Shown here: positions 2,649 to 30,043 of the stretch, piece by piece
Layout: each line of letters begins with the position of its first letter
Numbering within the stretch: the first letter of the stretch is position 1
Virus record (IMG/VR): IMGVR_UViG_2579779105_000001
Direction: 5' to 3' (one strand)
Source of the DNA: a virus
Lineage: Duplodnaviria; Heunggongvirae; Uroviricota; Caudoviricetes
Length of the DNA: 64,000 bases
Notes under the pieces: generated by a model
The model's database searches: none
What the model saw: the letters and a program-made list of their open reading frames with translations, nothing else
What the model was told of the DNA's origin: nothing
Translations under genes and position numbers: made by a program

Positions 2649-3281
2649 TTGGCTACAGCGCAGAGCATTATCGAAACATTAAAGCGAGAGTGCTCACAGC
2701 TTGGTCACGATCTGAACCGTGCTTGTGGCATGGGACAAAGACCAGAGACATTTCCACTTATGTATGATGGGCGGGATGCCATTGCCTACATCCATGAGTA
2801 TCCGCACGGCCTGGTTGCGGAAACTGGGCAGCGTGGCGAAGCACTGCTGACGGCTAATTACCATCAACAAATCAGAACCAATCGCCTGTTAACGATGGAT
2901 GTGATCCCATCGGTGTGGGGAACGCCGCTTTACTATCGCCTGCCGGGCTTCGAAAAGGACTGGAATACCGACATAGACGAATGTCTCGCAGATAAAATTA
3001 TGGCGTACCTGGAGACGGATTTTCCGCGCTTATATCGCCGGATTATGGACTCTAAGGATGCGCCAATCGATGAATTAAAAATGCGTCCGGAGACGCTGGA
3101 GGCAATCAAGCAGACGGAGTTTGATACTGTATTCAGTGTGGCCTGCATTCCAAGCTGTTTCCATGAAAGCATTCCGTTCATGCAAGGAGATCGTCGTCAG
3201 GAAATCATTGACGCTTGCCGGGTATGGGCGAACGAATGGGATAAGAAGAATGGGGGTGTAGAAGATCTTTACGGGAAATAA
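2649..3281 (+). CDS. hypothetical protein
   Basis: 210-aa ORF with a TTG start in the track; the true start is uncertain (possible ATG near 2727). No recognisable motif. Confidence 0.35.
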   Translation: MATAQSIIETLKRECSQLGHDLNRACGMGQRPETFPLMYDGRDAIAYIHEYPHGLVAETGQRGEALLTANYHQQIRTNRLLTMDVIPSVWGTPLYYRLPGFEKDWNTDIDECLADKIMAYLETDFPRLYRRIMDSKDAPIDELKMRPETLEAIKQTEFDTVFSVACIPSCFHESIPFMQGDRRQEIIDACRVWANEWDKKNGGVEDLYGK

Positions 3282-3295
3282 TGTGTTAGAAATCT
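3281..3295 (-). promoter_or_regulatory. putative C1-type operator-like site (TTTCTAACA core)
   Basis: The reverse complement reads ATTTCTAACACAT, matching the motif that recurs at about ten intergenic positions in this window. Confidence 0.4.
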
Positions 3296-3350
3296 AAAAT
3301 TACGATTCGAATGTATTGATTGTGAAGGTAACTTAACATAGAATTTTCCT

Positions 3351-3424
3351 TGCTGGTGGGCGGCACCCACGTTTCGCTTGCTGGGCTTGATAGTCACTTA
3401 TTGGTTATTGTTCGCCCACCAGCA
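3351..3424. repeat. 12-bp perfect inverted repeat (TGCTGGTGGGCG / CGCCCACCAGCA) with a 50-nt loop
   Basis: Read directly from the sequence. Confidence 0.6.
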
Positions 3425-3652
3425 TTTAACAAATTAAAGCGTTAGAAAAGTATAGTAACGCAAGAGCACGCTTTGGCACCGTGCAGGCCAAAGTTCAGCA
3501 GGTTTAGTGCGGAAAGTGGTTTCAGAGAGAGCACTTTGCGGAGTAAACGACAGTACATGTTGAGCCACGGAAGGTCTTTTTAAGGTGTTCATTGATGATG
3601 GTCCGGCAGAGAGTAACGGTACATGCTGCATCTAATCATCAATGCACATCTT

Positions 3653-3717
3653 CAACATTAAGGAGGCATAGGGATTTTTGTGGCGGTTACCTTTTGCCCT
3701 GAGTCTCCTTAATGTTG
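3653..3717. repeat. 13-bp perfect inverted repeat (CAACATTAAGGAG / CTCCTTAATGTTG) enclosing an AAGGAGG Shine-Dalgarno-like element
   Basis: Read directly from the sequence. Confidence 0.6.
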
Positions 3718-3934
3718 CGGTAATGCACCTATGCGGATGTGGCCTTGCATTGTGTCTTGAAAGAATGGGGTAAGGCCGGGGACATCCCCAGGGGGAGGCA
3801 CCCCCGCTGCAACGAACAGCCACAGACGGCAGTCGAGTGATGGGAACGTGCAAAGACTTTAAACCTCGTTATGGCTGGCGTGGCAAACGCGACAACCGAG
3901 ACAGAGCGGTGACGGGCGGAGAGAGTGCCGCATC

Positions 3935-4011
3935 AAGAAAGAAGCCGACTTGTGATCCCTTTCAGCGGGCATTTGAAAGTGAATCCAGTTCAGGCAGTCG
4001 GCTTCTTTCTT
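3935..4011. repeat. 16-bp perfect inverted repeat (AAGAAAGAAGCCGACT / AGTCGGCTTCTTTCTT) with a 45-nt loop
   Basis: Read directly from the sequence. Confidence 0.6.
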
Positions 4012-4031
4012 GTGTGAGATGTAGCGTATTT

Positions 4032-4055
4032 GCCCATCTTCGGGTGGGCTTTTTT
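4032..4055 (+). terminator. rho-independent terminator-like hairpin
   Basis: GCCCATC-TTCG-GGTGGGC stem-loop followed by TTTTTT. Confidence 0.45.
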
Positions 4056-4222
4056 AGGGTTTTCGTCATGGTTAGCGACTTTGCGGCGGTTTAGAACCCG
4101 ACCATTAAAGTAAATGCAAACGATGATCTGATGATGGTAGCGGCCTAAGAAGCCTGACGCCACGGGGTATGAGTCGTCCCCCGTCAAAAAATCGACCGCA
4201 GAGTGTCCCCGTCTGTGTATTA

Positions 4223-4335
4223 GGGAACGGGGAGGCATAACAGGCAAGGGCGCTGGTGTGATTAACCAGATGAATGAGAAGGGTCAGGTCTTTCTGGTCA
4301 GCGCCCTTACCTGTTACGTCCCTCCCGCGTAACAG
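4223..4335. repeat. extended imperfect inverted repeat (17-bp core AACAGGCAAGGGCGCTG / CAGCGCCCTTACCTGTT, one mismatch)
   Basis: Read directly from the sequence; flanking GGGAACGGGGAGG / CCTCCCGCG segments extend the pairing. Confidence 0.5.
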
Positions 4336-4514
4336 CCATTGCTTGATGGTATATGGGAAAGTTTGTTGGTTACGGGTATATCCCGTCATGCTGAAGGCGC
4401 TAATCACGCTGGAAGCCAGGGTTATGCATCCCCTGTTACTGAATTGCAGCCAGGGCGCGGTGCGCCGAAAAGCATACGGAGGTGGAAGCCCTCGCCGGAG
4501 ACGTACCCGGCAAG

Positions 4515-4590
4515 TGATGGTGTAGCTCAGCGGTTAGAGCGGTTGACTGTTAATCAACGGGTCGATGGTTCAAATCCATCCACCATCGCC
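4515..4590 (+). tRNA. tRNA-Asn (anticodon GTT)
   Basis: Manual cloverleaf: acceptor GATGGTG/CACCATC, D-arm TAGCTCAGCGGTTAGAGC, anticodon loop CTGTTAA, T-loop GGTTCAAATCC, 3' CCA encoded. Confidence 0.85.
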
Positions 4591-4592
4591 AA

Positions 4593-4668
4593 TGCCGGTT
4601 TAGCTCAGTTGGTAGAGCGCCTGCCTTGTAAGCAGGATGTCAGCGGTTCGAGTCCGTTAACCGGCACC
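4593..4668 (+). tRNA. tRNA-Thr (anticodon TGT)
   Basis: Acceptor GCCGGTT/AACCGGC, anticodon stem-loop CCTGC-CTTGTAA-GCAGG, T-loop GGTTCGAGTCC, CCA encoded. Confidence 0.85.
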
Positions 4669-4677
4669 AACACAACA

Positions 4678-4750
4678 GGTAAGGGTATTTTGCGACGTCG
4701 GAGATCGCCGTGCTTGGCAGAGGGTTCGAATCCCTACGAAGTACCCTTAC
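4678..4750 (+). pseudogene. degenerate tRNA-like element
   Basis: 10-bp perfect outer stem (GGTAAGGGTA / TACCCTTACC) encloses a T-arm-like AGGGTTCGAATCCCT hairpin, but the T-arm is not adjacent to the acceptor stem and no D or anticodon arm fits. Confidence 0.3.
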
Positions 4751-4882
4751 CGTTGTGATGAAGTGCAGCTCTTTGAAGCAACCAGAAGATAAGCATCTGG
4801 CTTCACAACATAAACCGCAGGAACGACCAATAAACGGTAGTCCGTATGGAGAACACCCCGTTGAGGAAGAGGCCTGGCCGGA

Positions 4883-4993
4883 ACCGTAACCGGCACCACA
4901 ACGTTGAGAACATTGGCGTAACGGGATCATATCCCAATCTATGAATAAATGTCGCGAGGCAGCGTGACAACCAGTGTTCTCAACGTTGTGGTG
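4883..4993. repeat. 19-bp perfect inverted repeat (CACCACAACGTTGAGAACA and its reverse complement) around a 73-nt loop
   Basis: Read directly from the sequence; the loop contains a GGGATCATATCCC palindrome with a GATC site. Confidence 0.6.
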
Positions 4994-5133: not shown

Positions 5134-5220
5134 CGGAGAGTAGGGAGCATGGTGCTCAAGCGGTCTTGAAAACCGTCCCATTGCGCAAGCGATGATGGTT
5201 CGATTCCATTACTCTCCGCC
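5134..5220 (+). tRNA. tRNA-Ser-like (anticodon TGA), class II with long variable arm; slightly non-canonical D-arm
   Basis: Acceptor GGAGAGT/ACTCTCC, anticodon arm GCGGT-CTTGAAA-ACCGT (near-identical to the E. coli tRNA-Ser(UGA) arm), T-arm GATGG-TTCGATT-CCATT, discriminator G, CCA encoded. Confidence 0.5.
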
Positions 5221-5484
5221 AGCGCAACGTTAAGAGTATTTGGCTAATTAAGCGAATGCCGGAAGCAGAACCGGATCACCAAATGCGTACAGGCGTCATC
5301 GCCGCCCAGCCAGCCAAGTGCTCTTACCATTGCGGTGAATGCGGCTAAGCGCACGCGGAACAGTTAAAACAATCCTTATTAGTGGTTAAATCAAACATCC
5401 CGGCGTTAATTGTTAACTGGTTAACGTCACCTGGAGGCACCAGGCACCGCAGCTTTTTTATTCGTTAAATAATGGAGTGAGAGG

Positions 5485-5703
5485 ATGCAGAACAATCCGA
5501 ACAAATGTCGAACGCTATGGGTGCGGCTATATATTTATGTCGTCCTCTGTTTGATTGTGTCACTGGTTCTGTATGTTTGGCTTTTGCCAAATATGATCTC
5601 ATCTGACAGCACAATACTTGTATTGTTGGGAGTCCTTCTCGCGCTCATTTACCCGGCTTTTGCAGTAGTCTTTTTTCGCAAAAAAATCCAGGAAATTGAT
5701 TAA
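5485..5703 (+). CDS. small hydrophobic membrane protein (two predicted TM helices)
   Basis: 72-aa ORF with hydrophobic segments; its stop overlaps the start of the next gene (ATTAATG). Confidence 0.45.
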   Translation: MQNNPNKCRTLWVRLYIYVVLCLIVSLVLYVWLLPNMISSDSTILVLLGVLLALIYPAFAVVFFRKKIQEID

Positions 5704-6530
5704 TGAAAAAAACGTTGATTAGTGCAGCGATTATTTTTGGTTCTTTATGTCTGACCGGATGCGACCGGGTAGAACCAGGCAATGTAGGGATCAAAGTAAA
5801 TAAGCTGGGGGATGATAAAGGTGTCGGCGAAGTAGTTGGCGTTGGTCGCTACTGGACAGGCTGGAACACAGAAGTTTATATCTTCCCGACCTTTAAGCAA
5901 ATGAAGACCTATGATGATCCGTTCAGCTTCCAAATGAGCGACGGGACAACAATTGGTTACCACATTGGTGTAGCTTACAAGGTTGATCCGGCAAAAGTCA
6001 CAACTGTATTTCAGACCTACCGCAAAGGCGTGGATGACATTACCGACACCGACCTGCGCCAGAAGATTGCCGACGCACTTAACCGACTGGCCAGCAAAAT
6101 GACCACCGACAAATTTATCGACGGTGGCAAGTCTGAACTGCTGGATGCAGCTCTTAAAGACATCCAGGAAGAAATGACGCCCATCGGTATTCAGGTAATG
6201 AGCCTCTCATATGTGGGCAAGCCGGAGTACCCGCCAACCGTTATCGACAGCATTAATGCCAAAGTCACGGCGAACCAGAAAACTCTGCAACGCGAGCAGG
6301 AAGTCAAGCAACGCGAAGCAGAAGCCAACATGCTGCGCGCAGAAGCTGCCGGACAGGCCGATGCCATTCGCACAAAAGCCCAGGCTGAAGCTGATGCCAT
6401 TCGTTTACGCGGTGAGGCTCTGCGCCAGAACCCCGGCGTTATGGAGTTGGAAGCGATCAACAAATGGAACGGAACGCTACCGCAGTATATGACCAGTAAT
6501 ACCGCTGTTCCGTTTGTTCCGGTGAAATAA
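5703..6530 (+). CDS. SPFH/band-7 (HflK/C-stomatin-like) domain lipoprotein
   Basis: Lipoprotein signal with LTGC lipobox; SPFH-like core and a C-terminal Ala/Glu/Arg-rich coiled coil (AEANMLRAEAAGQADAIRTKAQAEADAIRLRGEA). Confidence 0.6.
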   Translation: MKKTLISAAIIFGSLCLTGCDRVEPGNVGIKVNKLGDDKGVGEVVGVGRYWTGWNTEVYIFPTFKQMKTYDDPFSFQMSDGTTIGYHIGVAYKVDPAKVTTVFQTYRKGVDDITDTDLRQKIADALNRLASKMTTDKFIDGGKSELLDAALKDIQEEMTPIGIQVMSLSYVGKPEYPPTVIDSINAKVTANQKTLQREQEVKQREAEANMLRAEAAGQADAIRTKAQAEADAIRLRGEALRQNPGVMELEAINKWNGTLPQYMTSNTAVPFVPVK

Positions 6531-6684: not shown

Positions 6685-6760
6685 GGCCCTTTAGCTCAGT
6701 GGTTAGAGCTGGCGACTCATAATCGCACGGTCACCGGTTCAAGTCCGGTAGGGGCCACCA
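6685..6760 (+). tRNA. tRNA with CAT anticodon (Met, or Ile2 if lysidine-modified)
   Basis: Acceptor GGCCCTT/AGGGGCC with one G-U pair, D-arm TAGCTCAGTGGTTAGAGC, anticodon loop CTCATAA, T-loop GGTTCAAGTCC, CCA encoded. Confidence 0.8.
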
Positions 6761-29772: not shown

Positions 29773-29967
29773 CAAAGTTTCCCCAGGAACGTTACGCAAA
29801 AGTTGATGAGAGCAAAGAGTTCAATGCCCAGCTCAAACAACGCCAGGACAGTGAAAAACAGGACATATAGCAACCCAATTTCTGTATCGGATTGCTGGTG
29901 GATTGCACTAATTGCGACAAGCATCATGACCTCCTGATATAGCGTCTGAAAAAAGTATCTTCATTTT

Positions 29968-29997
29968 GTGTTAGAAAATCAATTTTGATTTTCTAAC
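29968..29997. promoter_or_regulatory. palindromic double operator (TGTTAGAAAATCAA / TTGATTTTCTAACA)
   Basis: Perfect 14-bp inverted repeat of the recurring motif, in the divergent promoter region between the 29161-29772 gene and the ref-like gene. Confidence 0.55.
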
Positions 29998-30043
29998 ATG
30001 TTTGATCAACCATAGCGGCTATGTAGACAAACCGGGTATTTCT

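Follow-up and report, generated by a model that had tools for sequence, protein, structure and literature searches.

A phage RNA module with a tmRNA-like tag template and an arm complementary to host tmRNA in the tRNA-operon leader of a D6-like phage

Here, we describe a 1.2-kb region between positions 3296 and 4515 of the virus record IMGVR_UViG_2579779105_000001 (IMG/VR; Caudoviricetes). The window refers to the whole stretch of 64,000 nucleotides (nt) that was analysed, and all features to which we assign a strand are on its plus strand. We suggest that the key element of the region is a module at 4057-4235 that corresponds to the messenger half of a transfer-messenger RNA (tmRNA), i.e. a tag template, a stop-codon hairpin and two pseudoknots, that has no tRNA-like domain and that carries an arm for docking on the tmRNA of the host. 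tmRNA together with SmpB is the main bacterial ribosome-rescue system, and the tag sets the fate of the rescued proteins. In the model that we propose, the phage RNA would turn the one-piece host tmRNA into a hybrid two-piece tmRNA in trans, and stalled proteins would receive a phage tag; we rate this step slightly short of even odds. The module would be the central of three parts, with a peptide transcript at 3316-4055 on one side and a stalk hairpin plus spacer at 4229-4515 on the other, and the three would make up the upstream half of an approximately 2.2-kb array of processed, structured RNAs. To this explanation as a whole, including docking, we assign a probability of roughly 0.5. Judged by its sequence, the source element is a phage D6-like member of the P1 family, D6 being a P1-family plasmid-prophage: Window positions 3200-4600 are 98.4% identical to Escherichia phage D6. 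A preliminary description of the region had recognized its inverted repeats and had missed the tmRNA-like tag template with its arm antisense to host tmRNA.

The tmRNA-like module

In distant blastn searches, approximately 4058-4251 of the window matches unannotated intergenic DNA of very different phages, namely Erwinia phage phiEa2809 and Klebsiella phage Magnus (Ackermannviridae), E. coli phage Bp4 (Schitoviridae), Cronobacter phage CS01 (Drexlerviridae) and Salmonella phage Akira. The alignment has an invariant TAAAT directly followed by GCAAACGA, then a frame of 10 codons and then a stop codon. In the window, this tag frame is at 4116-4148, begins with the resume codon GCA, specifies ANDDLMMVAA and ends with TAA. 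It is preceded by an A/U-rich linker (4104-4115) that ends in UAAAU and in which U-5 (4111) and A-4 (4112) are invariant. In E. coli tmRNA, U85 and A86 are the main determinants of frame choice (PMC2481249), and U-5 and A-4 of the module are the invariant equivalents of these two nucleotides.

The 143 instances of the tag frame that we collected represent 37 distinct frames and 22 peptides, for instance ANDDLMMVAA, ANDDVVLMAA, ANDEQFLAVA and ANEEMYLAVA. All 37 distinct frames have 10 codons plus a stop, and 36 of them end in [AV]-A. The peptide pattern A-N-[DE]-[DEN]-x-[hydrophobic]-...-[AV]-A is maintained over the 22 variants, while codon usage is not: All four Ala codons are used at codon 10, Val at position 5 is specified by four codons, and TAA, TAG and TGA all serve as stops. 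The frame is conserved in Ackermannviridae, Schitoviridae, Drexlerviridae, Felix O1-like, P22-like and P1-like phages. As in a tmRNA, the tag is encoded internally from a resume codon in a U/A context, with no initiation codon, and has a C-terminus of the type associated with proteolysis.

The structures 3' of the resume codon also have the order known from tmRNA, with a stop codon in the loop of helix 5 followed by pseudoknots. The helix H5-like hairpin at 4135-4162 has the stems UGGU/GCCA and GGC/GCC. In pseudoknot a (4163-4196), stem 1 is CGGGG/CCCCG and the loop GUCG pairs with CGAC at 4193-4196; in pseudoknot b (4198-4233), the stems are GCAGA/UCUGU and UCCCCG/CGGGGA. The hairpin and both stems of the first pseudoknot, as well as the second pseudoknot, are supported by covariation. 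Across 37 sequences, 94.7% of cells are paired at the predicted pairs compared to 26-43% with slid partners, and compensatory changes occur at 12 pairs, including both pseudoknots, a result matched by none of 500 shuffles. The pairing was confirmed on 21 sequences outside the set used for model building. A covariance model built from the 37 sequences of the covariation test finds exactly one copy in the window (4101-4235; 56.6 bits) and also matches P1, D6, HK620, the Felix O1-like phage skuden, Aeromonas phage pAh6-C and Erwinia phage Omen; it does not match E. coli ssrA at E <= 0.01.

By contrast, the tRNA-like domain of a tmRNA, with the acceptor pair G3:U70, a T-arm and a chargeable ACCA, is missing, and no tmRNA family of Rfam is matched at its gathering threshold. 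ARAGORN calls no tmRNA in 128 loci (the window and 127 relatives), though it detects E. coli ssrA, and a scan for T-loop motifs from -400 to +420 around the copy in the window found none. In CS01, a coding sequence lies directly 3' of the module. The scores are 6.5 bits for Rfam RF00023 (tmRNA; gathering score 47) and 13.1 bits for RF01850 (gathering score 84); RF04321 (tmRNA_permuted) gives 23.1 bits for the window and 24.1 bits for P1, again against a gathering score of 47, and this weak match stems from the start of the tag. A hidden tRNA-like domain was rejected: T-arms occur only in the neighbouring tRNA or tRNA-like units, the acceptor stems of which (GUUGUGG/CCACAAC) do not match the module. 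Pairing of UUUGCGG with a downstream CCGCAG inside the module was also rejected, as it is restricted to the P1 type and clashes with the covarying stem of pseudoknot b. Nor is the module DicF, despite a "dicF-like region" in the P1 record: DicF was not found in P1 (L002:4800-5500) at E <= 5 or in the window at E <= 10.

The module is present in 763 of 50,697 GenBank phage records, chiefly from Salmonella, Escherichia, Klebsiella, Erwinia and Shigella phages and with HK620 and relatives of Vi01 and Felix O1 among the carriers, and in at least 120 IMG/VR contigs. Of 5426 complete E. coli genomes, 660 (12%) carry it, at 582 plasmid and 140 chromosomal places. Among species-representative genomes, carriers are Enterobacterales, the one exception being a contig that has a P1-like copy and is labelled as a metagenome-assembled genome of Bacillota; most of the 40 matches of this genome scan are from outside the Enterobacterales, lack the 10-codon frame and were discarded as chance. 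In CS01, Magnus and pAh6-C, the module has no tRNA nearby. The copy in HK620 (L133, 632-763) is in the leader of the late operon, between pR'/qut and the tQ terminator; the small RNA P22E, which has the equivalent late-leader position in P22 (PMC13397905), is unrelated in sequence to the module and was set aside. One IMG/VR contig (L047) has two copies, at 1276-1411 and 1766-1901. Among the matches listed, the module is either unannotated or covered by a coding sequence for a "hypothetical protein". A full-text literature search on tag peptides, on tmRNA-like phage RNAs and on antisense, tmRNA and phage returned nothing relevant. With no match in the literature, no call by ARAGORN and Rfam scores below threshold, we conclude that the element is apparently undescribed as far as the searched literature goes.

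The antisense arm and its possible action on host tmRNA

The 5' arm of the module (4057-4103) is antisense to nt 57-106 of host tmRNA, as seen by blastn, RNAduplex, shuffle tests and cofolding. The target extends from the 3' half of the pseudoknot PK1 through the linker and the resume codon to the end of tag codons 1-5. With window positions 4040-4520 as query against E. coli ssrA, the top blastn match is to the minus strand at nt 57-104. Block by block, the tmRNA partner of GUUUUCGUC is GACGAAAAC (tag codons 3-5), that of GCGAC is GUCGC (positions -3 to +2, spanning the resume codon), and that of UUUGCGG is CCGCAAA, where PK1 ends and the linker starts. The U-run that comes next in the arm and GACC are complementary to the 3' half of PK1. 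The complementary blocks are those that are invariant in the arm (GUUUUCGU, GCGAC and UUUGCGG).

Four arm architectures can be distinguished (majority/P1, Bp4, Felix O1-like and Aeromonas/Rosenbergiella), which differ in their middles and all begin with (UA)GUUUUCGU. RNAduplex placed eight different arms on nt 56-106, with energies of -42 to -50 kcal/mol and, for seven of the eight, z scores of -3 to -5 relative to mononucleotide shuffles. When seven arm variants from the four architectures were compared with ssrA nt 68-106, six scored 26-41 versus 14.6 +/- 2.3 for shuffles, none of 1000 of which reached these values. As an alternative partner of the arm, we considered the tag region of the phage itself and rejected it: The scores for this pairing are at background level, and the arm fits host tmRNA better in 47 of 47 cases (34.7 versus 13.4). 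ACGAAAAC is absent from the 37 distinct phage tag frames. In cofolding, the heterodimer is predicted to be 8.9 kcal/mol more stable than the two monomers. In other words, a conserved part of the module has extended, conserved complementarity to tmRNA above chance, as in an antisense RNA.

We suggest that host tmRNA, charged with alanine, is the molecule on which the arm docks and would contribute its tRNA-like domain and SmpB. The intermolecular helix would replace PK1 and the linker; tmRNA retains its rescue function when PK1 and the coding sequence are changed (PMC2481249). Docking would also hide the resume codon of the host, and the phage resume codon, which is 12 nt past the duplex, would be presented at about its native distance from the position of PK1. 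Rescued ribosomes would then add the tag specified by the phage rather than ANDENYALAA. ClpX and SspB read positions at which the phage tags differ from ANDENYALAA.

Several observations weigh against this model. The arm of Erwinia phage phiEa2809 pairs more weakly with the E. coli sequence (z -1.6), and that of Aeromonas phage pAh6-C is significant over an 11-nt seed only. The Aeromonas tmRNA sequence predicted from the pAh6-C arm (AAAAACAGACGCAAACGACGAAAAC) had no match in 185,579 genomes; more likely, this arm tolerates a U:U mismatch, assuming that Aeromonas has a target of the E. coli type. The identified hosts all belong to the Enterobacterales or to Aeromonas and should have the target in common. 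Half of PK1 is part of the target and must open for full pairing. In addition, a terminator (4032-4055) is located directly 5' of the module in the P1/D6 lineage, with no good promoter between the two, and expression of the module would require read-through and processing in this lineage. Speaking for the model is a sigma-70-like promoter in Akira-like and Felix O1-like phages, from which the RNA would begin at the seed UAGUUUUCG. A final point against it is that a long RNA-RNA duplex could trigger cleavage by RNase III, which would give inhibition and not a tag swap.

This last point leads to the leading rival to docking, namely that the module is purely an inhibitor or sponge of host tmRNA. 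The arm would block the template or lead to its destruction, e.g. via RNase III, and the 3' part would never be translated and would provide stability or bind tmRNA-associated proteins such as S1, SmpB or RNase R. In favour of this view, the complementarity takes in the resume codon and tag codons 1-5, cofolding predicts a long duplex with interruptions, and the phage tmRNA of DS6A, which has only the tRNA-like domain and is reported to resemble a tmRNA inhibitor, shows that phages may interfere with trans-translation (PMC4131195). However, inhibition leaves unexplained why a 10-codon frame should be invariant, why U-5 and A-4 should be retained, why four Ala codons and three stops should be interchangeable at its end and why the peptide pattern should be kept across 22 variants. 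We regard pure inhibition as unlikely, if clearly the strongest of the alternatives to docking.

Less probable still is that the region is an ordinary processed leader, in which the hairpins and tRNA-like pieces would be punctuation for RNase III, RNase P or RNase E in tRNA maturation and the tmRNA-like piece an inert relic of captured host sequence that travels with recombining tRNA cassettes. The location of the element in tRNA arrays, amid stalk hairpins and degenerate tRNA-like units, and the modular appearance of a region that seems to be shuffled among phages fit this idea. On the other hand, a relic would not retain covarying pseudoknots, a 10-codon frame and an invariant antisense seed over 763 phage records of many families, and the copies without a nearby tRNA in CS01, Magnus and pAh6-C do not fit it either; we consider it improbable.

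We also considered that the module is an autonomous, unconventional tmRNA in two pieces that functions independently of the host, with a 7-bp helix NNGUUUU/GAAACNN followed by ACCA as a cryptic minimal acceptor that would be charged after a cut behind CCA. Majority and P1-type arms can form such a helix, it is followed by an invariant ACCA, its outer two base pairs (bp) covary partly, and the 23-24-bit match to tmRNA_permuted points in the same direction. However, there is no T-arm, no G3:U70 pair and no tmRNA call by ARAGORN, and nothing would hold the two pieces together after cleavage. Moreover, Felix O1-like, Aeromonas and Rosenbergiella arms lack GAAACNN-ACCA and yet have the tag module. 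Because it is absent from these three arm types, the helix is not a defining feature of the module, and it was also rejected as a mini-acceptor or RNase P site. An autonomous tmRNA is, thus, highly improbable in our view. Lastly, the idea put forward in the preliminary description that the repeats are C4-type immunity RNAs, matured by RNase P and pairing with ribosome-binding sites elsewhere in the element, would suit an RNA-rich, strongly structured region with a promoter bracketed by operator-like motifs, but is scarcely credible given that there is no similarity to C4 or, at threshold, to any Rfam family, that the AAGGAGG hairpin at the centre of the idea is part of a conserved small open reading frame (ORF) and that the best-supported complementarity is to host tmRNA rather than to phage ribosome-binding sites.

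The surrounding array of structured RNAs

The record of D6 has no annotation from the pmgS-like gene, the end of which corresponds to window position 3281, to tRNA-Asn. P1, P7, SJ46 and RCS47 are homologous only from approximately 4029 onward, with approximately 92% identity, and in P1 the counterpart is located 3' of the C1 operator Op72 and the promoters P1ban and P2ban and 5' of trnA and trnT. It thus forms the leader of the ban operon, which is under repressor control. Thus, the suggestion that the region contains structured regulatory RNAs or a processed leader of the tRNA operon holds, by synteny with P1, as far as structured RNAs in such a leader are concerned, while the specifics differ. 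By contrast, 3296-4029 is specific to the D6 lineage and is present in 99 of the 5426 complete E. coli genomes, on plasmids in every case.

The inverted repeats of the preliminary description were all recovered, some with adjusted limits. The 12-bp repeat is perfect at 3351-3362/3413-3424 and forms a 5'-proximal hairpin (3351-3424), the core of which, GCTGGTGG/CCACCAGC, is retained in the divergent plasmid pHX138. The repeat around AAGGAGG has arms of 21 nt (3653-3673/3697-3717) that are 86% complementary with a perfect core of 13 bp. What had been given as 16 bp at 3935/3996 is, in fact, a perfect stem of 17 bp (3934-3950/3996-4012) in a long hairpin (3934-4012) in the 3' part of the 3316-4055 transcript. 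This hairpin is followed by an intrinsic-terminator-like hairpin with a UUCG loop (4032-4049) and T6 (up to 4055), and homology to P1 begins about here. A further repeat, at 3579-3599/3635-3655, had not been listed. Overall, the minimum free energy (MFE) of 3350-4056 is -270.7 kcal/mol (z -6.3); dinucleotide shuffles gave -232.7 +/- 6, and 0 of 20 were as good.

The operator-like site noted at 3281-3295 proved to be one copy of a dispersed motif, AANGTGTTAGAAAW, of which the window has 11 copies versus 3.9 +/- 1.7 in shuffles (0 of 100 reach 11). Copies are found at 3280, 3436, 8203, 14050, 25062, 29965/29989, 30620, 51063 and other positions, with an inverted pair at 29965-30002. The motif, which is distinct from the P1 consensus, is a candidate for the operator set of the D6-lineage C1 repressor. 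The copy at 3280-3293 (AATGTGTTAGAAAT) is conserved in D6-like plasmids; a second copy at 3436-3449 (AAAGCGTTAGAAAA) is supported by over-representation and by the alignment of these plasmids. The two copies flank a predicted sigma-70-like promoter, TTGATT-17-TAGAAT, identified by a consensus scan at 3316-3344, both hexamers of which are kept in D6-like plasmids except that the second is TAAAAT in pHX138. From this bracketed promoter, a highly structured RNA of approximately 700 nt would extend to the T6 terminator.

Five D6-like sequences, one of them a divergent plasmid, were aligned. Within the D6-specific part, conservation is highest at approximately 3640-3815, a block that contains AAGGAGG (3660-3666) and an ORF that starts with TTG. 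This ORF (3678-3773) encodes a hydrophobic peptide of 31 amino acids (MWRLPFALSLLNVAVMHLCGCGLALCLERMG). Its substitutions are CGG>CGA, CTG>CTA and TGT>TGC, all of which are synonymous, and a conservative L>V, and in p98205 and ECdb0009 the first third of the ORF is swapped with frame and hydrophobicity maintained (34 amino acids). The synonymous and conservative substitutions and the in-frame swap of the N-terminus indicate that the ORF is coding. Thus, the statement that no convincing ORF covers the region is correct for long ORFs, none of which is annotated in D6 either, but not for this coding-like ORF of 31 codons. The Shine-Dalgarno sequence AAGGAGG and the TTG start are sequestered in the hairpin at 3653-3717, in which the 13-bp stem pairs the Shine-Dalgarno region with codons 8-12, and p98205 and ECdb0009 have a compensatory A:T>G:C change in this stem. 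With ribosome-binding site and start locked in this way, translation would be gated by RNA structure. Hence, the AAGGAGG hairpin exists as described, but not as a free-standing regulatory RNA, since the ribosome-binding site and start of the conserved ORF are inside it.

We read the 3316-4055 unit as a putative structure-gated mRNA of a small membrane peptide with a layout similar to that of a type I toxin mRNA: It combines a small hydrophobic ORF under purifying selection with a sequestered ribosome-binding site. Neither an antisense RNA that could act as the antitoxin nor a match to a known toxin family, both of which would be expected of such a system, was found. Three results count against this reading of the peptide unit. 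The pNCYU plasmid has TTA where the TTG start is expected, the peptide has no matches in Pfam and NCBIfam, and no minus-strand promoter for an antitoxin RNA was detected in 3296-4055 at the threshold of the scan. Further downstream in the D6-specific part, a 110-nt block (3815-3924) has a counterpart with 80% identity in an intergenic region of a P1-like plasmid from Pantoea (L177:1501-1613), where it is located immediately 5' of a stalk hairpin and a tRNA-like unit; this block may be another mobile RNA module.

On the 3' side of the tag module, the approximately 35-bp imperfect repeat reported at 4223-4335 is real, with arms of 27 nt (4229-4255/4299-4325) that are 81% complementary and with a compensatory UA/CG pair among P1-like copies. 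It is one member of a family of "stalk" hairpins that many phages have repeatedly between their tRNA and tRNA-like units. The stalk in the window (4229-4325) follows the consensus CACAACAGGTAAGAGCATT...AGTGCTCTTTCCGTTGTG, and further copies are at 4671-4756, 4894-4993 and approximately 5219-5345; the copy at 4671-4756 holds a T-arm-like insert, GGTTCGAATCC. Interspersed with the copies are tRNAs and degenerate tRNA-like units, the latter with a T-arm-like hairpin, ACCA and CAAC at the end, and a direct repeat, GTAACCGGCACCACAACG, occurs at 4657, 4886 and 5114 with a spacing of approximately 229 nt. In unrelated phages, stalks likewise flank tag modules and tRNA-like units. The stalks are probably processing punctuation, and the stalk hairpin and spacer at 4229-4515 would serve as such before the tRNAs.

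The spacer itself (4326-4515) belongs to the P1 lineage, is 92% identical to P1 and has short hairpins up to tRNA-Asn; covariation among P1-like copies is too weak for a structure call in this spacer. The MFE of 4056-4515 is -175.9 kcal/mol versus -157.5 +/- 6.1 for dinucleotide shuffles (z -3.0; 0 of 100 as good). In this fold, the start of the arm, AGGGUUUUC (4056-4064), pairs in cis with GGAAGCCCU (approximately 4482-4492) just before tRNA-Asn. This pairing may be coincidental or may, in the P1 lineage, form a stem for closure or processing. GUGGAAGCCCU, near 4482-4492, is identical to nt 202-212 of E. coli ssrA.

The tRNA array starts with tRNA-Asn (GTT) at 4516 and tRNA-Thr (TGT) at 4594 (4516-4669; tRNA scan). 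Within or just past the last stalk unit, 5331-5451 has a sub-threshold Rfam match to the Salmonella small RNA STnc100 (40.4 bits; gathering score 47), and the embedded AATTAAGCGAATGCCGGAAGCAGAACCGGATCACC recurs in an unrelated viral contig (L011). An ORF of 275 amino acids (5703-6530) that is SPFH/band-7-like by eye only is followed by a tRNA with a CAT anticodon (6685-6760); this tRNA is probably a lysidine-modified tRNA-Ile and not tRNA-Met because the syntenic P1 gene is tRNA-Ile2 (trnI). In Akira (L007, approximately 1790-1930) and two other loci (L116 and L071), a stalk is followed by tRNA-like units with the acceptor GUUGUGG/CCACAAC, a D-arm and a T-arm. In these Akira-type units, an insert of 60-75 nt replaces the anticodon arm, and they are not called by ARAGORN.

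Comparison with known systems

A tag template without a tRNA-like domain that is joined to an anti-tmRNA arm and has a wide distribution therefore points to an overlooked phage strategy for editing or disabling trans-translation, in which phages may rewrite or block the ribosome-rescue tag of the host. If our model is correct, the module would represent a third natural tmRNA architecture, with the template supplied in trans, and a new viral route to reprogram protein quality control of the host that is common to P1, HK620, Vi01-like, Felix O1-like, G7C-like and other phages. It would also account for a conserved stretch of phage tRNA regions that has no annotation. The peptide gene and the punctuation by stalks and tRNA-like units are secondary findings that are useful for annotation.

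For the upstream unit, the closest parallel is with type I toxin mRNAs of the hok, tisB, zorO and shoB class. Here, too, a hydrophobic peptide of approximately 30 amino acids is encoded by a long structured mRNA that has Shine-Dalgarno sequence and start in a conserved hairpin, in this case on a plasmid-prophage. However, neither an antitoxin RNA or antisense promoter nor a family model match was found, and the promoter is apparently under a phage-repressor-type operator and not constitutive. The C4 immunity RNA of P1 resembles the RNAs described here in being a structured RNA of a P1-family phage that would need to be processed from a longer transcript; it differs from them in sequence and Rfam family, in locus (immI for C4 versus the ban/tRNA leader) and in that the best complementarity here is to host tmRNA and not to ribosome-binding sites of the phage.

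Phage-borne derivatives of tmRNA have precedents. Phage tmRNAs are known from mycobacteriophages (Bxz1, Catera and others) and from Bacillus phage G, and DS6A has a form that consists of the tRNA-like domain only and has been reported to resemble a tmRNA-inhibiting molecule (PMC4131195). A tmRNA database from 2025, the first-pass search of which used Aragorn and Rfind, contains 79 unique phage sequences (PMC11915505). Like DS6A, which is a case of a partial tmRNA kept by a phage, the module would be a phage-borne tmRNA derivative (PMC4131195, PMC11915505). However, the known cases are complete or have only the tRNA-like half, whereas the module is the reciprocal, i.e. the messenger half plus an antisense arm, and its carriers, which are phages of Enterobacterales, are missing from the phage tmRNA list of 2014 (PMC4131195).

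Compared to bacterial tmRNA (SsrA; RF00023), the module shares the GCA resume codon preceded by U-5/A-4, a 10-codon tag that begins with AND and ends with Ala (ANDENYALAA in E. coli), the stop codon in a hairpin loop and H-type pseudoknots 3' of the stop. Unlike bacterial tmRNA, it has no acceptor stem, T-arm or D-loop analogue, has only two pseudoknots in approximately 180 nt, carries an arm antisense to tmRNA and is called by neither ARAGORN nor Rfam. Conceptually, the permuted two-piece tmRNA of Alpha- and Betaproteobacteria and cyanobacteria (RF04321) is the closest system. In both, a template RNA pairs, or in our case is proposed to pair, with a separate RNA that bears a chargeable tRNA-like end, and UAAAUGCAAACGAU of the module is identical to the consensus of the RF04321 model at the start of the tag. 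The two pieces of permuted tmRNA derive from one gene of one organism, and their pairing rebuilds the tRNA-like domain. By contrast, the partner proposed here is the whole one-piece tmRNA of the host, and the pairing spans PK1, the linker and the start of the tag.

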